Below are positions 29,281 through 38,543 of a stretch of DNA of 64,000 bases, piece after piece (the first letter of the stretch is position 1; each line of letters opens with the position of its first letter). Position numbers and translations under genes: made by a program. The stretch covers positions 128,274-192,273 of the forward strand of contig JBFHFF010000002.1 of assembly GCA_041583775.1 (NCBI GenBank), given 5' to 3'. Under the pieces are notes generated by a model. It made no database searches. It had not been told where the DNA came from and was given only the letters and a program-made list of their open reading frames with translations. The stretch is from Candidatus Moraniibacteriota bacterium. Lineage in GTDB: Bacteria; Patescibacteriota; Minisyncoccia; Moranbacterales; DUUL01.

Positions 29281-30912
29281 TTAAAAAAATATTATTGATA
29301 AAAGAAGTATCCCATAAATAAAAATAATTGATAAAACCCACCAATTTAGGTTTTTTATTTTTATTTTTTTGTTATTTAAAATCCAATAATTAATCGCTCC
29401 AAAAAATATTGCAACAGGCCAAAGGTTTTTTTCATTTAAAACTATTATTGACATTAAATAGCTAATAAAAATTGTCGCTCCAAAGAAAAACCGTGCATTT
29501 TCCTCACCTAAAAGGGTTGGTATTGTTGTAACACTATTCTTTTTATCTCCTTCAATATCCTTAAGATCTTTCATTGGGATTAAAAGTGTATAAACAACAA
29601 ATAGAAATAAAGCTATCTTCCATGGGAAATTTTCCAAGGATTGCCCATTTGAAATTACAATAAAACCCATAAATAAAAACAAAAGTGATGCTGCAGAGGA
29701 AACAATGCTTGAAATAATTACAAACCTCTTTAATCTCATTGGTTTACAAGAATAGATCCAGGTTATTAATAAATAGACACACATTATTAAAAAAAACTTG
29801 GGTCCAACAATAATCGATGTTAAAAGAGACATTCCCATTGGAATAAGTGCTATATCTAAATATTCATTTTCTGAAAAAATTTTCTTAATTAGCGGTCTTT
29901 CTTTGTTTGTAATTTCATCTATTTTTTTATCCTCAATATCATTTATAAAAACAGAATAAAACCAGGCACAAAAAATTGAAATTAATAAATTAATCACCAC
30001 TAAAAAACTAAAAATATCAAAAGATATATTTTTTTTAAAATAAAAATAACCCATCATTAGCCCAATAACAAACAAACCGCTATTAAAAAACATTTGTGGA
30101 TATCTAACATTCTTCAATAGTGCAAAAAATTTCTCTTTACTTAAAATAAATTGTAAAAAAATTAAATTTATAAACAACACAACAGTATAAAAAAGTGATG
30201 CTCTAAAGTGAAGCGCTATCTTCATTGGTTTTTTATCAAAATCAAAAATTTCCATTGATGTTAAAAAGGTTGTTGCAACATCACTGCTTTTAATTTTTAA
30301 AATATTTTCTCCTGATAAACCTTCTATTAAAAATGTTAATAAACTGGGGAAAACAGCAAAAATATACAATATTGTGTATATAATTAAAGTTACAAAAACT
30401 CCTTTCATCCAACTTCTTTTTTTAATTCCTACATAAAATCCAAGCCCCACCATTGCTAAAAAAATTCCCGTCCTAGTTCCATATGTAATACCAAAAGAAG
30501 GATTATTACCAAAAAAAAGAAAAAATCTTTCCAAAACACCTAATGCGCTATCAAAAATATAAAAACTCCAAAAATCTTTTTCTCTAAAAATTAACTTATC
30601 GATAATTGGTGGCAACACCATCACCCACTGTCCCCATAATAAAAAAGTTGCTAATTTTGATATTTTTTCTTTAGTAAAAATAACCAAAAAAGTTAAAGTT
30701 GCAACATACACCATTAAAAAAAATAAAAAAGTTCCGTGCAATAAAGAACCTGTTAAAAAAGAAAAATTATATGTTTGTAAACCAAACAACATACTTTCAA
30801 TGAGATATCTAATTCCCACAATTGTCACAAAAGAAATTAAAATAGTTTTTATTGAAACAGGTCCCTCTTCTAAAAATGCAACACCTTTTTCAAATATTTT
30901 TATAATTTTCAT
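29281..30912 (-). CDS. Polytopic membrane protein with a C-terminal UbiA-family prenyltransferase domain (fusion)
   Basis: The C-terminal half has both Asp-rich UbiA motifs (INDIEDKKID and KDLKDIEGDKK). The N-terminal ~300 aa is a separate multi-TM domain with no match I recognise. Confidence 0.6.
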   Translation of the reverse strand: MKIIKIFEKGVAFLEEGPVSIKTILISFVTIVGIRYLIESMLFGLQTYNFSFLTGSLLHGTFLFFLMVYVATLTFLVIFTKEKISKLATFLLWGQWVMVLPPIIDKLIFREKDFWSFYIFDSALGVLERFFLFFGNNPSFGITYGTRTGIFLAMVGLGFYVGIKKRSWMKGVFVTLIIYTILYIFAVFPSLLTFLIEGLSGENILKIKSSDVATTFLTSMEIFDFDKKPMKIALHFRASLFYTVVLFINLIFLQFILSKEKFFALLKNVRYPQMFFNSGLFVIGLMMGYFYFKKNISFDIFSFLVVINLLISIFCAWFYSVFINDIEDKKIDEITNKERPLIKKIFSENEYLDIALIPMGMSLLTSIIVGPKFFLIMCVYLLITWIYSCKPMRLKRFVIISSIVSSAASLLFLFMGFIVISNGQSLENFPWKIALFLFVVYTLLIPMKDLKDIEGDKKNSVTTIPTLLGEENARFFFGATIFISYLMSIIVLNEKNLWPVAIFFGAINYWILNNKKIKIKNLNWWVLSIIFIYGILLLSIIFF

Positions 30913-31196
30913 TTATTTGTTTTAATAAATTTCACTATATTTTGTTTGATTTTTTTATTAATTTCAGTTGTCATTTTATTTCTCAATAACACAACCTCAC
31001 TCCTCCATGTTGATTTTGAAACTGATAAAAAAAGGATTCCGCCTTTCCAGTCACTAACTTTAATATTTTTTCTCCCTATATCACCAAACATATCTTGAAT
31101 AACCAAATCTGTTGTTTGTCTTAATATGTGTATATCAAAAGATAATTCAGAGCTGTTTTTTACTCTTTTTTTTAATAAAGTCTCAAAACTCTTCAT
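30909..31196 (-). CDS. DUF721/DciA-like small protein (putative replicative helicase loader/operator)
   Basis: 95 aa sitting immediately after dnaN in the conserved dnaA-dnaN-(recF)-DUF721 context. The C-terminal pattern LFLSVSKSTWRSEVVLLRNKMTTEINKKI resembles the DUF721 core. Confidence 0.5.
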   Translation of the reverse strand: MKSFETLLKKRVKNSSELSFDIHILRQTTDLVIQDMFGDIGRKNIKVSDWKGGILFLSVSKSTWRSEVVLLRNKMTTEINKKIKQNIVKFIKTNK

Positions 31197-31214
31197 TTTT
31201 TATTTTTCCAATCC

Positions 31215-32363
31215 CTAGGATTTTATAATCGGCATAATAACATAAGAAAAGGATTCATCAACCTCCCCTTTTGTTTTTATTCTTTTAAAAACCACTGGTG
31301 ATTTTTGTTTATTTAATTTTATTAAAACTTTTTCACAATCAAATAAAATACTAGACAAACCCTCGAGTATAAATCTACAGTTAAATAAAATTTCAAAATC
31401 AGTACCTGATATTTTTGCTGGTATCTTTGAGAGATTATCACCAGAATCCATTGATTGTGCAGTAATTAATAAGGCATCTAATTCTTTGGTATTTTTAAAA
31501 TTAACCTCTCCATTTTGAGAGTTTGTTACTAAAGAAGCAATTTTAACAGCATTTATCAGTTTTTCTTTCTCTACTTCAAGTTCTATATCAAACTTCTTGG
31601 GTAAAACCTGTTTATATTCAGGATAATTTCCATTTATCAATCTTGAAACTATTTTTATTTCACTTGTGCTTATGAATAATTGATTTTGTTCAATAACTAT
31701 ATTAATTTCTTCATCTCTTGCAATTCTTTGAACTTCCATTAACGCTAGTGCTGGAATAATGATTGCTGATTTTTTTTCTTTAAATGTTTCAAAACTCTCT
31801 TCGTCCTCAACTTCAATTCCATCAATATTAATTTCTGTTAATCTAAAACTATCAGTTGATGCTAATGTGATTGAGTTATTTTTAAATTTCATCAATATTC
31901 CATTTAATTCCTGTCTTGTGTCATTGTGAGCAACAGAAACGAGAACTCCTGAAATAGCTTTGTTTAATTTTTTAGGTTCAATGGAAAAAAATGATTCATC
32001 TGGAACATCTGGGATAATAGGAAAATCTTTTGCATCAATTCCTTTTATTTTTATTTTATGATTTTCTGTAGTTATTTTTAATTCCGATCCCTCAAGTTCA
32101 CCAGAAACAACCTCATCTTTTATGGTATTTAAAAAACCTCCAACAATTCTTGCAGGAATCGTTATACTTCCCTCTTTTTCTATTTTAGCTCCTATATAAA
32201 CCTTGATTGCTATCTCTAGATTTGTTGCAGCTAAAACCAATCTACCTTTTTCTGATGAAATTAATATATTTCCTAAAATTGGAAGTGTTGTTTGTTTTGA
32301 AACAATCCTTTCAACTTTTGATATCCCCTCTCTTAAATTAATCGCTTTGCAAGTAAATTTCAT
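31215..32363 (-). CDS. dnaN: DNA polymerase III beta sliding clamp
   Basis: N-terminal MKFTCKAINLREGISKVERIVSKQTTLPILGNILIS and a three-domain length (382 aa). Confidence 0.9.
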   Translation of the reverse strand: MKFTCKAINLREGISKVERIVSKQTTLPILGNILISSEKGRLVLAATNLEIAIKVYIGAKIEKEGSITIPARIVGGFLNTIKDEVVSGELEGSELKITTENHKIKIKGIDAKDFPIIPDVPDESFFSIEPKKLNKAISGVLVSVAHNDTRQELNGILMKFKNNSITLASTDSFRLTEINIDGIEVEDEESFETFKEKKSAIIIPALALMEVQRIARDEEINIVIEQNQLFISTSEIKIVSRLINGNYPEYKQVLPKKFDIELEVEKEKLINAVKIASLVTNSQNGEVNFKNTKELDALLITAQSMDSGDNLSKIPAKISGTDFEILFNCRFILEGLSSILFDCEKVLIKLNKQKSPVVFKRIKTKGEVDESFSYVIMPIIKS

Positions 32364-32644
32364 TTTCTGTAATTATTTAATAATATCTTTATATATATCT
32401 TATTATTATTATCTATTAGACAACAAAAGATGTGTATAAGTCTAATAAAAGCTTTAAATAAAAGTAAATTTCTGTCTATAAAACTAACACATAAAAAGAC
32501 AATGACTGTTAATGGATTTGTTGAAAACTCATTTTTTGATAAGAAAATAAGTTTTCGAAAAAGTTATTAACAAAAAAGAATAAATAACTAAACAATTAAA
32601 TAACAAACAGTAAACAAGTTTTAAACATACTTATTCACAAATTT
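32364..32644. promoter_or_regulatory. AT-rich dnaA-dnaN intergenic region with near-consensus DnaA boxes; candidate oriC segment
   Basis: TGTGTATAA at 32431..32439 and TTATTCACA at 32631..32639, each one mismatch from TTATCCACA/TGTGGATAA, in a 280-nt region of very high AT content. Confidence 0.4.
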
Positions 32645-34045
32645 TTAATATTCAATAAATTTTTCCTTTATAAATTTCAATTGATCTTTCATTAAAAGAT
32701 TATTTTCCAATTCCTTGTTTATTTTTTCATAACCATAAATTGCAGTAGAATGATCCCTTCCTCCCAAAGACTTTCCAATCTCAGGAAAGGATAAATTTAA
32801 TTCTTGTCTTAAAAAATAAATAACAATTTGTCTTGGTTTCACAACTTTTTTTTGACGAGATTTCCCAATAATTTCCTCAGGTTTTACATCATAAAAATCA
32901 GCCACAGACTTGATTATTTTTGAAACAGTTAAATCCTTTTGTCTATTAATAGAAATAACATCCTTTGTCATCTCAGTAACATCTTCAATTGTTGGTGTTG
33001 TATTCCTAAGTTGAAAAGTAACAATTATTTTATTTAAAGCACCTTCTAATTCTCGTACATTGTGGTAAATATTAATTGCTAAATATTCAACAACATCCTC
33101 GGGTATAGAAAAGTTTTTTTCAGACAATTTTTTATTTATAATAGCAATTCTTGTTTCTAAATCAGGTTTATTTACATCTGCCATCATCCCCCCCTCAAAA
33201 CGCGATCGTAAACGATCTTCAATTGTTGGAATTGATTTAGGAGCTCTATCAGAACTTAGGATAATTTGTTTTCCTAATTGATAAAGAGATTCAAAAATGT
33301 GAAAAAATTCCTCCTGAGTTTTTTCTTTTCCAGCCAAAAATTGAACATCATCAAGAATTAGAATATCTAAATCAATATAACTGTTTTTAAATTCCTTTGC
33401 TTTAGATTTTTGAATTGCATCCACAAGTTCATTTGTAAATCTTTCCATACTTACATAACGGATTTTAATGTTAGGGTTAAGTTTTCCCGCATAATTTCCC
33501 GTTGACTGTAAAAGGTGTGTTTTTCCAAGACCAACACCACCATAAATAAATAAAGGATTATAGTTTTTACCAGGAGCTTCAGCAATTGAACGACAAGCAG
33601 CATAAGCCAATTCATTATTTCCTCCAACAACAAAACTATCAAAAGAATATCTACTATTAAGATTTGACCTATAAATATTTTTTTGTGAGGTTGGATTTGT
33701 GAAAGAGCGTTGATTGTTGTTTATTTTTTTAATGTCAGCAACTGTATTAGTGTTTTGATTGATTTTTGGTTTTTTAATTCCATTTAAATCTGAAGGATCA
33801 GAGTTACCTATTCTACATGAAAGAGCGTTAATTTCTCTTCGATATTGTTGTACAGCGTCTATTATTTGTGTTTTATATTTTTTTTCCAGCCATTCTTTGG
33901 CAAAAATATTAGGAACAGAAACAATAAGTAAATTATCAGTGATACCAAAAATAGAGGTACTTTTAAACCATGTAGTAAAACTCGCCTTTGAAATTGATAG
34001 CTCCATTTCCCCCAACACAGCTTGCCACAGCTCCTCGTTGGTCAT
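32645..34045 (-). CDS. dnaA: Chromosomal replication initiator DnaA
   Basis: AAA+ Walker A (GGVGLGKTHLLQSTG), Walker B/sensor (LILDDVQFLAGKEKTQEEF) and the C-terminal DnaA-box-binding domain (GGRDHSTAIYGYEKI). Confidence 0.95.
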   Translation of the reverse strand: MTNEELWQAVLGEMELSISKASFTTWFKSTSIFGITDNLLIVSVPNIFAKEWLEKKYKTQIIDAVQQYRREINALSCRIGNSDPSDLNGIKKPKINQNTNTVADIKKINNNQRSFTNPTSQKNIYRSNLNSRYSFDSFVVGGNNELAYAACRSIAEAPGKNYNPLFIYGGVGLGKTHLLQSTGNYAGKLNPNIKIRYVSMERFTNELVDAIQKSKAKEFKNSYIDLDILILDDVQFLAGKEKTQEEFFHIFESLYQLGKQIILSSDRAPKSIPTIEDRLRSRFEGGMMADVNKPDLETRIAIINKKLSEKNFSIPEDVVEYLAINIYHNVRELEGALNKIIVTFQLRNTTPTIEDVTEMTKDVISINRQKDLTVSKIIKSVADFYDVKPEEIIGKSRQKKVVKPRQIVIYFLRQELNLSFPEIGKSLGGRDHSTAIYGYEKINKELENNLLMKDQLKFIKEKFIEY

Positions 34046-34249: not shown

Positions 34250-35245
34250 TTATCTCCCCTTCTTCCAACTGGCAGTAAAGGTGCTTGATGATTGATTCAT
34301 GGAATATAAATATTCCATTTTTTTCAATCTGTTAATGTCAATTTTTGACAACTCGGGATTTTCATTCCCGGTTAAAATTTCATTATTTACCTGGAATATT
34401 ATCCTGGAAATGTACTCTTTTGCTAAATCATATCTTCCGGAGACCCCACAAGAATATGCAACTGCCTCCAGAAGCGTAAATCGCTCCTTGAAACCAAGAT
34501 ATTCTTGCCCATCAAATAATGATTCCCAGGCTCTTTTAGCAACTTTCTCGATATCGGGAATAGGATTTCTATTCTCAACTGAATGCATAATTTCACAAAC
34601 AGCTGATTGTCCAAAATCTCCCGTCGATGCAAAAGCGGCTTTTGCATCTTCATACTGCTGGAGTGTAAACAACAGCACTCCTATTTGGAAGCGGGTTATT
34701 TCCGCTCCAACTTCAAGTCCTTTTTCCAAAAAGTAGAGCGCTTCAGGGAGCGCTTCAGGATTTGGCTTGTTTTTTGAGCCTGAGCCCCCATAGTAAAGAT
34801 TTTTTGCTTTAACGAGATACTCAAAACCTTTTGGCACAGGCTTTAAATGGCAAAGAAGAGTACCTTTTTCGCTTTTTAGCTCGAAAACATCAGTACCCCT
34901 TTTTTTAGACAGATAAAGAGATATCGGCCCCTTTTTATTCCTGAGAACAAGGACTTCTCCCTCAGTTGTTTTCTTGAAAAAATAAGCTTCTCGAGGAACA
35001 TCCTCGAGGTCGTAAAACACAAAACCTTCTTGCCATTTGACCAGCCGAGATCTGGGGGTTTTTGGGCTTTCTCCATAGAATAACAAGAAGGATTTTCCAA
35101 CGATGTCTTCAGAGGAAACCGAAGAATTATCCCCACCTTCTTGTTTTTGTGAAAAAAATGCAAAACTATCTGTTGTCTGAAAACAACAAATTAAAAAAAG
35201 GGAGAAAAAAAATACACACAAAGAACTCAAATTTATTTTTTTCAT
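34250..35245 (-). CDS. Secreted Sel1/TPR-like repeat protein of noticeably higher GC than its neighbours; likely start MKKINLSS, with the longest ORF reaching 35281
   Basis: Signal-peptide-like N-terminus. Sel1-like repeats (LYYGGSGSKNKPNPEALPEALYFLEKGLEVGAEI... YEDAKAAFASTGDFGQSAVCEIM). Stretches near 50% GC against a ~30% background. Confidence 0.55.
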   Translation of the reverse strand: MKKINLSSLCVFFFSLFLICCFQTTDSFAFFSQKQEGGDNSSVSSEDIVGKSFLLFYGESPKTPRSRLVKWQEGFVFYDLEDVPREAYFFKKTTEGEVLVLRNKKGPISLYLSKKRGTDVFELKSEKGTLLCHLKPVPKGFEYLVKAKNLYYGGSGSKNKPNPEALPEALYFLEKGLEVGAEITRFQIGVLLFTLQQYEDAKAAFASTGDFGQSAVCEIMHSVENRNPIPDIEKVAKRAWESLFDGQEYLGFKERFTLLEAVAYSCGVSGRYDLAKEYISRIIFQVNNEILTGNENPELSKIDINRLKKMEYLYSMNQSSSTFTASWKKGR

Positions 35246-35580
35246 TAGAAGCACCTCTTTTTGTTGGTGGCTTTGAGCCAATTTGAAAGTTTAGATAACT
35301 AAACTATTTGTTTAATAAAAAGAACTTTACAGTAAAGAATAACAAGAAAAGTTGTTTTGTCAAGACATATTTATCTGTTTTTGTCAATAAAATATAACAA
35401 AAAAAGACAAAAATCATTAAAAAGCCTAAAGAAAGCTAAAAAATGAAAGAAAAAAATATGTTTTTTATTGACAAAAAATCTAAAAGAAGGTCTAATTATT
35501 GATAAAAATCTGAAAAAATTCACAAGATAATGAATATAAAATTATTAATTATTATAAATAAACTTTGTTTATAATAGAAT

Positions 35581-35884
35581 CTTATATTGTTCCATGTGGA
35601 ACAATATAAGATGACTTGAAATGTAGAAGGAATCATTTGAATTACAAAATTAAAGAAAGAAGATTTTTTTAAAGATTTTGAGAAATATTGAAAAAGTAAA
35701 CAATTGTTCTATGTGGAACAATTGTTTATTGTGTTAATTATAATTGTTCCACATAGAACATAATATTGATAATAAAGAAATAACAAAGAATAATAGAAAT
35801 AATTAAAAATAGTGAGTGTTTTAATTAAAAAATAATAAAATGTTTCTAAAATATTATCCCTAAATGTTCCATGTGGAACATTGA
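35581..35884. repeat. Four copies of a 16-bp palindromic motif TGTTCCAYRTGGAACA spread over an 800-nt AT-rich non-coding region
   Basis: The four copies are CTTATATTGTTCCA-TG-TGGAACAATATAAG at 35581..35610 (a 14-bp perfect inverted repeat), CAATTGTTCTATGTGGAACAATTG at 35701..35724, TTGTTCCACATAGAACAT around 35744..35761, and AATGTTCCATGTGGAACATT at 35863..35882. Confidence 0.65.
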
Positions 35885-36084
35885 AGAGTGTTAAGATTAA
35901 TAAAAGAATATAAATTCAAAACATAAAAAAGAATACTATAAAAAAGCGTTTAAAAGTATTTTTAAAAATAAATTAAAAAAACAAAAACAATGAAATTGAT
36001 TTTTTAAGCATTTTGTTGTATACAAGATGAAGGGAGTTAAATAAATCGTAAAATAAAGAAAGTTTTATTTAAAAATCCGTGATT

Positions 36085-36157
36085 GGGGATATAGCTCAGT
36101 TGGTAGAGTGCTCCCATGGCATGGGAGAGGTCTGGGGTTCAACTCCCCATATCTCCA
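36085..36157 (+). tRNA. tRNA-Ala (anticodon GGC), no encoded CCA
   Basis: Manual cloverleaf: acceptor GGGGATA/TATCTCC with a G3:U70 pair, anticodon loop AT-GGC-AT, T-loop TTCAACT, discriminator A. Confidence 0.85.
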
Positions 36158-36169
36158 CATTAAAAAATT

Positions 36170-36241
36170 GCCCCCGTAGTTCAATGGATAGAACAAGGGA
36201 CTCCTAAGCCTTAGATGTAAGTTCGATTCTTGCCGGGGGCA
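36170..36241 (+). tRNA. tRNA-Arg (anticodon CCT), no encoded CCA
   Basis: Acceptor GCCCCCG/CGGGGGC is perfect. Anticodon loop CT-CCT-AA, T-loop TTCGATT. One A-G mismatch closes the anticodon stem. Confidence 0.7.
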
Positions 36242-36256
36242 CATTTATATAGAAGT

Positions 36257-38359
36257 ATGAAAAAATTAAAAATTCCAAAAAGCGTTCAGCGCGTTCTAAT
36301 GAAACTGGAAAAATCTGGCTTTGAGGTTTTTGTGGTTGGTGGTTGTGTTAGGGATATTTTGTTAGGAAAAAACCCAAAAGACTGGGATGTTACAACAAAT
36401 GCGACTCCAAGGCAAGTTATGGGGATTTTTTTGGATGCAAAATATGAAAATGATTTTGGAACAGTTTTGATTTCTGATAAATATCTCACGGGATATGAAA
36501 TTGTGTCAGATAAAATTGAAATAAAGCCAGAGATAAAGGAAAAAATTATCAAGATAGCCAAAGAAAAATATCTTGCAAAAATAAAATGCAAAGGTCATAG
36601 CGTTCAACATTCAAAAAATGTGACAAAAAATGCCCTGGAAATAGCAAAAACATTTAAGAGAATAAATCCTGATTTTATTGAGATTATTTCAATATTTCAT
36701 GATTCTGGAAAGGCACTTATTAAAAATCAAGAAAACTCAGGACATATAGAAAGATCTCAGTTTATCATAGAAAAGGAAATTAAAGAATTTTTTCCGAAAA
36801 AAGAAGTGGAAATTTTTAAAAAAGCAATTTCACACAACCCTAGTGTTGTAAGGGAAAATTTAGAAAATCAGATCTTGGTAGAAGCGGATTTAATTGATGG
36901 GCTTTGTGCTGAAAGAATTAATGCAATGAGTGGTGATGCAAAAAAGGAACATATAGATTGGGTTGGGAAATATTTCAATAAAAAGGGTGCTTTTAAAGAG
37001 ATAATTACGGTTAGAGGGAAAGAATTAATGTCAGAAGCAATTAATTTATACAATCAAGCAGATTTTAATTTTCAGCTACCGCAAATAGAAATTTCAAAAA
37101 ATGAGAATATTGAAATAACAACATATCGAACAGAGTCGGTTTATTCAGATAAAAGACACCCAGACGAGGTTGAATTTGCAGAAACATTAGAAGAAGATCT
37201 TTCGAGAAGAGATTTTACGGTCAATGCAATGGCATTAAAACAACTCACAAAAGAAAAGAAGGAATTAAAAGAGTTTTTAATTTCCGATGAATATCAAATA
37301 ATAGATTTGTTTAAGGGAAGTTTAGATATTCAAAATAAACTTATAAGAGCAGTTGGGGATCCAAAAGAGCGTTTTGCTGAAGATGCGCTTAGAATGTTAA
37401 GAGCAGTTCGTTTTGCCACCTCTTTAGGGTTTGAAATAGAGGAAAAAACTAAAAAAGCAATCCAATATAAAATTAAAAATCTAACCTTCGTTTCAATAGA
37501 AAGAATCAGAGATGAATTTGAAAAAATCATACTTTCAGAGCATCCAGGGAGAGGGGTGGAATTGCTTATTGAAACAGGCTTGATGAAGTTTATTATTCCA
37601 GAAGTATTAGAAACGATAGGTGTTGAGCAGAATCACCATCATTATTATGGTAAATACAACACCGTTTATAAACATTTGGTAGCAAGCCTAGAAAAATGCC
37701 CATCAAAGGAACTAGAAGTGAGACTAGCAGCCTTTTTACATGATATTGGAAAGCCAGTTGTTAAAAGAGGTGTTGGGGAAAAGGCAACTTTTTATAATCA
37801 TGAATATGTGGGGAGTAAAATGGTTAAAAATATTCTAGAAAGACTTAAATTTACCAGAAAAACAATTGATAAAACAACATTACTCGTTAAAAATCATATG
37901 TTTTATTACAATGTTGATGAGGTTGGGGAATCTGGAGTGAGGCGGGTTGTGAAAAAAGTTGGTATAGAAAACATAAAAGACTTGATTGATGTTCGAATCG
38001 GTGACAGATTGGGGAGTGGAGTCCCTAAGGCTGTTCCTTACAAACTAAGACATTTCCAGTATATGGTTGAGAAAGTTTCAAAGGATCCAATTTCAGTAAA
38101 ACAATTAAAAATAAATGGGGATATTTTAATAAAAGAACTTAAAATAGAGCCTGGTCCGCAAATTGGGGCTATTTTAGAGGTTTTGTTGGCAAAAGTAATA
38201 GAAAATCCAGAAATAAACAAAAAACAGCAACTACTTATTTTAGCAGAAAAGCTTAGAAATGAAGACCTTGGTGATTTAAGGAGGTTTGCGAAAAATAAAA
38301 TTAAACAAGAAAATAAAAAAGAAGAAAAAGAAACTAAAAAGAAACATTGGGTTAAATAA
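36257..38359 (+). CDS. cca: CCA-adding enzyme (tRNA nucleotidyltransferase, class II head plus C-terminal HD domain) carrying a ~215-aa insertion in the head domain that contains a second HD-like motif
   Basis: GGCVRDILLGKNPKDWDV (GG...DxD), then TYRTESVYSDKRHPDEVEFAETLEEDLSRRDFTVNAMAL, a C-terminal HD (FLHDIGK), and the insertion motif GHSVQHS...IISIFHDSGK. The ORF-track start at 36230 overlaps tRNA-Arg, so the start is probably MKKLKIP at 36257. Confidence 0.8.
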   Translation: MKKLKIPKSVQRVLMKLEKSGFEVFVVGGCVRDILLGKNPKDWDVTTNATPRQVMGIFLDAKYENDFGTVLISDKYLTGYEIVSDKIEIKPEIKEKIIKIAKEKYLAKIKCKGHSVQHSKNVTKNALEIAKTFKRINPDFIEIISIFHDSGKALIKNQENSGHIERSQFIIEKEIKEFFPKKEVEIFKKAISHNPSVVRENLENQILVEADLIDGLCAERINAMSGDAKKEHIDWVGKYFNKKGAFKEIITVRGKELMSEAINLYNQADFNFQLPQIEISKNENIEITTYRTESVYSDKRHPDEVEFAETLEEDLSRRDFTVNAMALKQLTKEKKELKEFLISDEYQIIDLFKGSLDIQNKLIRAVGDPKERFAEDALRMLRAVRFATSLGFEIEEKTKKAIQYKIKNLTFVSIERIRDEFEKIILSEHPGRGVELLIETGLMKFIIPEVLETIGVEQNHHHYYGKYNTVYKHLVASLEKCPSKELEVRLAAFLHDIGKPVVKRGVGEKATFYNHEYVGSKMVKNILERLKFTRKTIDKTTLLVKNHMFYYNVDEVGESGVRRVVKKVGIENIKDLIDVRIGDRLGSGVPKAVPYKLRHFQYMVEKVSKDPISVKQLKINGDILIKELKIEPGPQIGAILEVLLAKVIENPEINKKQQLLILAEKLRNEDLGDLRRFAKNKIKQENKKEEKETKKKHWVK

Positions 38360-38445: not shown

Positions 38446-38518
38446 GGGACCATAGCTCAGTGGTTAGAGCAGTCGGCTCATAACCGATTGGTCGGAGGTT
38501 CAAATCCTCCTGGTCCCA
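38446..38518 (+). tRNA. tRNA-Met (anticodon CAT; an elongator Met or lysidine-modified Ile2 cannot be distinguished), no encoded CCA
   Basis: Acceptor GGGACCA/TGGTCCC, anticodon loop CT-CAT-AA, T-loop TTCAAAT. A 1:72 G-C pair argues against an initiator. Confidence 0.8.
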
Positions 38519-38543
38519 CACAAAGTAAAAATAAAAAAAATCA

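Follow-up and report, generated by a model that had tools for sequence, protein, structure and literature searches.

An HD phosphohydrolase domain nested in the catalytic head of a class II CCA-adding enzyme from a Moraniibacteriota bacterium

Few template-independent polymerases have been studied as thoroughly as the CCA-adding enzymes, whose catalytic core is regarded as tightly conserved. The cca gene described here lies on the plus strand of a 64,000-nucleotide stretch of DNA (the window) from a Candidatus Moraniibacteriota bacterium (GenBank assembly GCA_041583775.1, contig JBFHFF010000002.1, positions 128,274 to 192,273). Within the catalytic head of its class II product an entire free-standing HD phosphohydrolase of the YedJ/2PQ7/YpgQ type, about 200 residues long, is nested, and the canonical C-terminal HD domain follows later in the same chain. 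Both component families are well known; the novelty is the nested arrangement inside the catalytic core. The nested domain is probably an active metal-dependent phosphoesterase.

The polymerase core

The open reading frame (ORF) is single and unbroken from an ATG at 36257 and gives a product of 700 residues. An alternative TTG start at 36230 would produce a longer ORF running into the tRNA-Arg gene (36170-36242), and the N-terminal 'KIPK' is kept among the aligned homologues, so the ATG is taken as the start. In Pfam searches with the full-length protein, the PolyA_pol head domain is matched in two separate stretches (111 bits against a cut-off of 23), together with PolyA_pol_RNAbd (71 against 22) and tRNA_NucTran2_2 (34 against 27). 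The NCBIfam equivalogs PRK13299 (263 against 290) and TIGR02692 (261 against 439) stay below their cut-offs, with the insert splitting the match.

All the catalytic landmarks of the class are present. Across 32 aligned homologues, motif A (G28-G29-x-V31-R32-D33), the catalytic residues D42 and D44, E286, residues R317, R318, D319, F320, T321 and N323 of motif B, and E375, D376 and R379 of motif D are invariant, while A324 of motif B is found in at least 90%. Motif D is the nucleotide-selecting template, and the flexible loop between beta5 and motif B is required for A addition and is shorter in CC-adding enzymes (PMC7730189). This loop is full-length here, with residues 282-328 aligning gap-free to the solved structures 6IBP and 1MIV from beta5 through motif B. 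The full-length AlphaFold (AF2) model (predicted local distance difference test score, pLDDT, 85.5; predicted template modelling score, pTM, 0.71) keeps beta4 (69-73) and beta5 (284-289) intact on either side of the insert, and its core superposes on the CCA enzymes 6QY6 and 1MIV with a target template modelling (TM) score of 0.73; as modelled, the polymerase sheet closes around the nested domain. The 3'-CCA is missing from all seven tRNA genes in the window, so a CCA-adding activity is needed. By its sequence the gene product is a genuine class II CCA-adding enzyme, and CCA addition is predicted for it.

The insert and its relatives

Searches of the PDB with phmmer place the insert precisely. 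Residues 12-72 match 6IBP 49-110 and residues 282-446 match 6IBP 114-263 (E-value 2e-47); likewise, residues 13-72 match 1MIV 11-71 and residues 279-446 match 1MIV 72-224, the 1MIV chain running from 71 straight on to 72. In the solved CCA enzymes, a tight turn of just 3-6 residues links the counterparts of residues 72 and 282, and the extra residues 73-281 have no equivalent there. A preliminary description, made from the sequence of the window alone, had reported an insertion of about 215 residues in the nucleotidyltransferase head; the insertion is real in the 6IBP and 1MIV alignments, and its length is slightly shorter, at about 206-209 residues.

The insert is an HD domain. On its own it scores 29.8 bits against Pfam HD (PF01966; gathering cut-off 22), covering profile positions 3-114 of 116, and the segments GHSVQHS and IFHDSGK, which the preliminary description had read as an HD signature, supply H114, H118, H148 and D149. 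It had also been suggested that structure prediction would reveal whether the insert forms an independent HD fold. Modelled alone with AF2, it forms ten helices with a pLDDT of 91.7 and a pTM of 0.90, and the nested domain is thus predicted to fold independently. The top Foldseek matches of this model are all HD-domain proteins, namely 2PQ7, 2PJQ (TM 0.64), YpgQ (TM up to 0.62) and 2QGS.

A profile built from 23 homologous inserts retrieves 2PQ7 (5e-8), SE1688/2QGS (2e-6) and E. coli YedJ/3GW7 (2e-4) from the PDB, as well as 2PJQ. Run against 1.84 billion representative proteins, the same profile finds 2171 relatives; the best 150 of these are mostly free-standing proteins of 190-230 residues matched nearly end to end, and CCA enzymes or their fragments make up only seven clusters among that best 150. 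In an hhalign comparison with 24 free-standing HD proteins, the probability is 99.9% (E = 8e-35) over 198 columns, reaching template positions 6-206 of 215. The nested HD is a relative, not an orthologue, of YedJ, because the YedJ model PRK10119/NF007515 leaves the full-length query unmatched at E <= 1 and even the free-standing homologues score only 22-54 bits on PRK10119 against a cut-off of 286. YpgQ does not appear among the PDB matches of the insert profile at E <= 10 and is related by fold only (TM 0.48-0.62 and 14-16% identity in Foldseek).

The insert is additional to the C-terminal HD domain (FLHDIGK; H495, D496), and both are present in the protein, as first proposed. The Pfam HD match of the C-terminal domain exceeds its cut-off and spans residues 483-554, and all eight motif residues of this domain are the same in each of the 32 aligned sequences. 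Derivation of the insert by duplication of this domain was considered and rejected, the BLASTP comparison between the two giving E = 0.34; a further comparison yields only matches of E = 0.03-2 around the HD dyad. An objection raised in advance, that the extra length might be a known N-terminal extension or a duplication lacking conserved His and Asp residues, therefore fails: the insert is neither an N-terminal extension nor a copy of the C-terminal HD, and its His and Asp residues are conserved.

Some observations concern the wider family of the nested domain. No second copy of the nested-HD type was found within the window. Four of its homologues elsewhere (P0150, P0176, P0185 and P0210; 427-505 residues) carry two HD stretches in tandem, and by sequence the type appears to have been duplicated or fused in other contexts too. 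The free-standing homologue P0134 (196 residues; locus L010, 4001-5225) overlaps a downstream AAA_28 gene by 11 nucleotides and has a tadA-like deaminase, tyrS and nusA as neighbours, a single weak hint of a nucleotide-metabolism context. The gene neighbourhoods of two free-standing homologues are uninformative.

Active-site conservation in the nested domain

The (near-)invariant positions of the free-standing family are H25, H29, H59-D60, H70, H102, E112 and D118-A-D120, and the nested domain has a counterpart for each of them in H114, H118, H148-D149, H163, H193, E203 and E209-A-D211. The homologue sample consisted of the 120 best matches to the query, and residue counts are based on 27 aligned inserts. 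In these aligned nested HDs, E209 is kept in all 27, D149 and D211 in 26, H114, H118 and H163 in 25, H148 in 24 and H193 in 22. H118, H148-D149 and D211, the strict ligands, are all present in 24/27, and all family-invariant positions are kept in 23/27. The nested domain is, on codon comparison, under purifying selection; against a 78%-identical orthologue, dN/dS is about 0.15 for the insert and about 0.11 for the core, with dS near saturation.

Position of the insertion within the head

The insertion point lies in the beta4-beta5 hairpin, five residues ahead of the invariant E286. When the head is aligned with the insert deleted, this point falls at R85-H87 of human TRNT1, in a numbering that fits four anchors in PMC7730189 (K61, N74, GEKH and E89/90). 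The element named the beta-turn is the preceding beta3-beta4 turn (N65-G68 in the query, GEKH in the human enzyme), and the insertion lies outside it. The wider "beta-turn region", K61-E90 in human numbering, has been proposed to help position the tRNA 3' end, and the change K89ins/E90V at position 89/90 makes the human enzyme better at CCA addition on armless tRNA (PMC7730189). The insertion is in the same hairpin as position 89/90, so the nested domain is predicted to project from the border of the 3'-end-handling region. Table 1 collects the features of the gene and its product.

Table 1. Features of the cca gene and the encoded protein, in window coordinates
Feature	Position	Strand	Basis
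cca, complete (700 codons plus stop): class II CCA-adding enzyme with nested HD and C-terminal HD	36257..38359	+	Pfam, NCBIfam and PDB matches
Head, N-terminal part, residues 1-72: motif A, D42/D44, beta3 (62-65), beta-turn N65-G68, most of beta4 (69-73)	36257..36472	+	Aligns to 6IBP 49-110 and 1MIV 11-71; strands from AF2 model
Nested insert, residues 73-281 (209 aa): linker ~74-90, all-helical HD domain 91-268, return linker 269-283	36473..37099	+	Pfam HD, AF2, hhalign
First His pair H114-x3-H118 (GHSVQH)	36596..36610	+	Align to H25 and H29 of the free-standing family
HD dyad H148-D149 (IFHDSGK)	36698..36703	+	Align to invariant H59-D60 of the free-standing family
H163, extended-motif His (H..HD..H..H..D)	36743..36745	+	Aligns to H70 of the free-standing family
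H193, second extended-motif His	36833..36835	+	Aligns to invariant H102 of the free-standing family
E209-A210-D211, distal metal-binding Asp motif (EAD; DAD in free-standing relatives)	36881..36889	+	Align to invariant D118-A119-D120
Head, C-terminal part, residues 282-365: beta5 with E286 (37112-37114), flexible-loop region, motif B R317-R318-D319-F320-T321-x-N323-A324 (37205-37228)	37100..37351	+	Aligns to 6IBP from 114 and 1MIV from 72
Motif D E375-D376-x-x-R379 (nucleotide-selecting amino-acid template)	37379..37393	+	Invariant in 32 aligned sequences
Canonical C-terminal HD, residues ~456-600 (H473, H495-D496, H515, H547, D578; FLHDIGK)	37622..38056	+	Pfam HD, TIGR00277 HDIG
C-terminal tail, residues 601-700: end of tRNA_NucTran2_2 region plus Lys/Glu-rich helix	38057..38356	+	Pfam, AF2 model

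Smaller additions occur elsewhere in these proteins. The query carries an extra 15-residue loop after motif B (residues 329-343, 37241-37285), which is modelled with pLDDT < 50. Five homologues of 794-842 residues (P0013, P0015, P0016, P0019 and P0021) contain low-complexity inserts rich in Lys, Asn and Gln at three sites: one just ahead of the nested HD, one following motif B, and one in the body downstream of RFAxQL. These CCA enzymes of the Candidate Phyla Radiation (CPR) appear to be unusually tolerant of insertions.

Distribution and history

The preliminary description had proposed surveying CPR genomes for the insert. The full insert is present at the identical site in 28 of the 120 best homologues, which are 680-842 residues long, and the sources named are Moranbacteria/Moraniibacteriota, Pacebacteria and Patescibacteria. 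The insert-less remainder measure 478-586 residues, with 57-99 residues between motif A and beta5, and the closest of them are 65-70% identical to the query in the core. A contig profile scan with 8 closer insert sequences shows that seven GTDB species genomes carry the insert. The nested layout seems, from the sequences sampled, confined to a small group of ultra-small bacteria of the CPR/Moranbacteria type. One record titled 'uncultured Bdellovibrionales bacterium' (locus L005, CAZKWX010000003.1) contains a Patescibacteria-type CCA enzyme with a nested HD at 40% insert identity, and its taxonomic label may be wrong.

Insert and core have changed in step, with mean identities of 38% for the insert against 65% for the core that co-vary at r = 0.76. 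In a neighbour-joining tree of the core, the insert-bearing proteins are interspersed with insert-less ones at six or more distinct positions, and this scatter suggests, as far as a distance tree can indicate, one old insertion that was then lost repeatedly. A search for significant HD remnants in insert-less relatives found none, and a visual remnant in two of them (P0108 and P0113) is only suggestive. Comparison of core residues with insert presence gave no clean discriminating position. Since close relatives work without the insert, the nested HD is an accessory and not part of the CCA chemistry.

Possible functions of the nested domain

An action on the 3' terminus of tRNA is the favoured role, on account of the location of the domain, the precedent of the E. 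coli Cca HD domain and the extended H..HD..H..H..D motif. According to the passage of PMC6961547 that cites Yakunin 2004, the HD domain of E. coli Cca takes 2',3'-cyclic phosphate off tRNA ends, and a review links the extended motif to dinuclear sites (PMC8177086). In the proposed scheme, the nested HD would sit next to the polymerase site and to the path by which the tRNA 3' end enters, where it would remove a 2',3'-cyclic phosphate or a 2'/3'-phosphate from the terminus. The adjacent polymerase would then rebuild CCA on the healed end within one protein, and the nested HD would complement, or share labour with, the invariant C-terminal HD. That the nested domain is such a second active phosphoesterase beside the polymerase site, processing 3'-terminal phosphates on tRNA so that damaged ends can be rebuilt, is a real possibility that we hold tentatively. 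A broader proposal, which we regard as rather doubtful, is a self-contained tRNA 3'-end repair-and-rebuild machine in which two different HD phosphoesterases flank one polymerase site and divide the clearing of 2',3'-cyclic or 3'-phosphates or of faulty nucleotides before CCA is re-added; it would be the domain-insertion solution of genome-reduced CPR bacteria that have no separate repair enzymes. The original suggestion of a second repair or phosphatase activity, or of tRNA-end quality control, is plausible.

Several points weigh against a role at the tRNA end. The characterised relatives, YpgQ, which converts (d)NTP to (d)NMP and pyrophosphate (PPi), and the 5'-nucleotidase PenF, use free nucleotides and neither uses RNA ends (PMC8177086, PMC11592144). 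A second healing domain would be redundant, because the invariant C-terminal HD could already heal ends. The placement beside the 3'-end path is a prediction, and the human TRNT1 sequence used for it is checked against only the four numbering anchors in PMC7730189. In addition, homologue P0022 has lost all metal residues, P0021 shows three His-to-Tyr changes and P0092 carries H148Y; since the metal residues of these three lineages are degenerate, catalysis is not always required.

The other readings differ in what they make of the same relatives and the same location. The nested HD might act on free nucleotides, as a YpgQ/PenF-like (d)NTP pyrophosphohydrolase or nucleotidase that clears, for example, non-cognate or damaged nucleotides near the NTP pocket, or a reduced genome might simply have fused two enzymes that handle nucleotides. 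Its nearest relatives in sequence and fold are free-standing HD proteins of the YedJ/YpgQ type, whose sole characterised members hydrolyse free nucleotides, and one free-standing homologue overlaps the nucleotide-kinase-like AAA_28 gene mentioned above. However, YpgQ is matched by fold alone and not by sequence, and nesting in a catalytic hairpin is an odd route for a convenience fusion, end-to-end joining being far commoner. A YpgQ-type reaction would also free PPi beside the enzyme, and PPi can drive a CCA-adding enzyme in reverse. We consider a free-nucleotide substrate somewhat unlikely. A mainly structural domain, an extra module for tRNA binding or oligomerisation that enlarges the beta-turn region and whose metal site is vestigial or regulatory, would account for the persistence of the domain despite the wrecked motif of P0022 and the His-to-Tyr changes of P0021 and P0092. 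It would also agree with the altered tRNA handling caused by changes at the hairpin in other CCA enzymes (PMC7730189), with the variable length of the hairpin in relatives (spacing of 57-99 residues) and with the mildly basic character of the nested HDs (mean pI 8.3, where pI is the isoelectric point; 14 of 23 inserts scored). The difference in pI from free-standing homologues is small, though, and the retention of the family-invariant metal and catalytic positions in 23/27 nested HDs, despite a mean insert identity of 38%, would be difficult to account for had the active site not been under selection, making a mainly structural role unlikely.

A nuclease in the style of YhaM, RNase Y or Cas3-HD, cutting back 3' trailers or faulty 3' termini ahead of CCA addition, would suit a domain that adjoins the 3'-end binding region and bears an extended motif associated with dinuclear sites (PMC8177086). 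The cas3_HD match and the Foldseek match to YhaM that point this way are nevertheless weak (17.7 bits against a cut-off of 43, and rank 21 with E = 0.06, respectively), the closest relatives are not known nucleases, and the RNA-binding domains that accompany such nucleases, the OB fold of YhaM and the KH domain of RNase Y, are absent; trimming is accordingly quite improbable. It is extremely improbable that the insert is not real, that is, an assembly or frame artefact, an intein, a mobile insertion or a duplicate of the C-terminal HD. The ORF is uninterrupted, the insert is in frame in 28 homologues from independent assemblies and in the seven GTDB species genomes, its identity co-varies with that of the core (r = 0.76), and its dN/dS is about 0.15. 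An intein or mobile element was considered and rejected, as Pfam finds in the insert the HD domain plus two sub-threshold chance matches and no intein or endonuclease family. The residues of an intein splice junction (Cys/Ser/Thr, terminal His-Asn) are not found at the junctions ...LIS/DKY... and ...ISK/NEN....

Relation to known enzymes and significance

The enzymes of Geobacillus stearothermophilus (1MIV) and Planococcus halocryophilus (6IBP/6QY6) have the head, neck and body core, motifs A, B and D, and E286 in common with the Moraniibacteriota protein, yet they have a turn of 3-6 residues in place of the 209 residues found here and also lack a C-terminal HD. E. coli Cca likewise joins a polymerase and an HD phosphoesterase in one chain, but its single HD is C-terminal, whereas here there are two, the extra one inside the head; its equivalog NF008137 scores 132 on the query against a cut-off of 451. 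Free-standing HD proteins of the YedJ/2PQ7/SE1688/YpgQ/PenF type (about 190-230 residues) share with the nested domain end-to-end homology, a common fold and the H..H..HD..H..H..(D/E)AD signature. They differ in being independent proteins, YpgQ being a homodimer, while the nested domain is an internal insert on linkers of about 15 residues, and in having DAD where the nested HD replaces the first Asp with Glu. The CCA enzyme of Romanomermis culicivorax offers a parallel, since the same segment (human K61-E90), with the beta4-beta5 turn at 89/90 included, has been remodelled in that lineage, with an effect on 3'-end handling; the remodelling there amounts to a few altered residues and one inserted residue, and no whole enzymatic domain.

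The view that such an insertion is not a feature of described bacterial CCA enzymes holds up, as the insert is absent from every solved-structure match and the literature agrees. Full-text literature searches turned up no account of CCA-adding enzymes with a nested or second HD. A 2026 survey assigns canonical CCA enzymes to a cluster that includes Patescibacteria, and public annotations call the insert-bearing proteins only "HD domain-containing protein" or "CCA tRNA nucleotidyltransferase".

The core sheet of this polymerase accommodates an enzyme of about 200 residues in a hairpin five residues from an invariant carboxylate, and selection has maintained the insert in one CPR lineage and sister lineages have dropped it. 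Should the nested domain act on tRNA ends, the protein would represent a compact natural case of coupled end-healing and CCA synthesis and would mark a natural insertion site for CCA-enzyme engineering. If it acts on nucleotides instead, it would be the first pointer to what the uncharacterised YedJ-type HD proteins do. Nature supplies pairs of close relatives that differ in having the insert, and these make the question directly testable.

Genomic surroundings

Genes for tRNA-Ala(GGC) (36085-36158) and tRNA-Arg(CCT) (36170-36242) lie directly upstream of cca, with 14 nucleotides between the end of tRNA-Arg and the ATG, and a tRNA-Met gene (38446-38519) lies downstream. It is possible that cca is co-transcribed with its own tRNA substrates.

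Further upstream, a spacer of 18% GC (35290-36080) lies between dnaA (32645-34045, minus strand) and the cluster of tRNA-Ala, tRNA-Arg and cca. Inside it, the 16-bp palindrome TGTTCCAYRTRGAACA occurs in four copies at 35588-35880, where 0.01 would be expected by chance. Each half of the palindrome resembles a DnaA box (TTATCCACA), and the GC skew switches sign at this region, which is probably a replication origin whose DnaA boxes come in inverted pairs. An ORF on the minus strand (34250-35281), situated between this putative origin and dnaA, encodes 343 residues with a signal-peptide-like N-terminus. The GC fraction is 0.41 at 34500-34999, inside this ORF, against 0.25-0.30 over 30000-33999 on the dnaA side, and the ORF may have been acquired horizontally.

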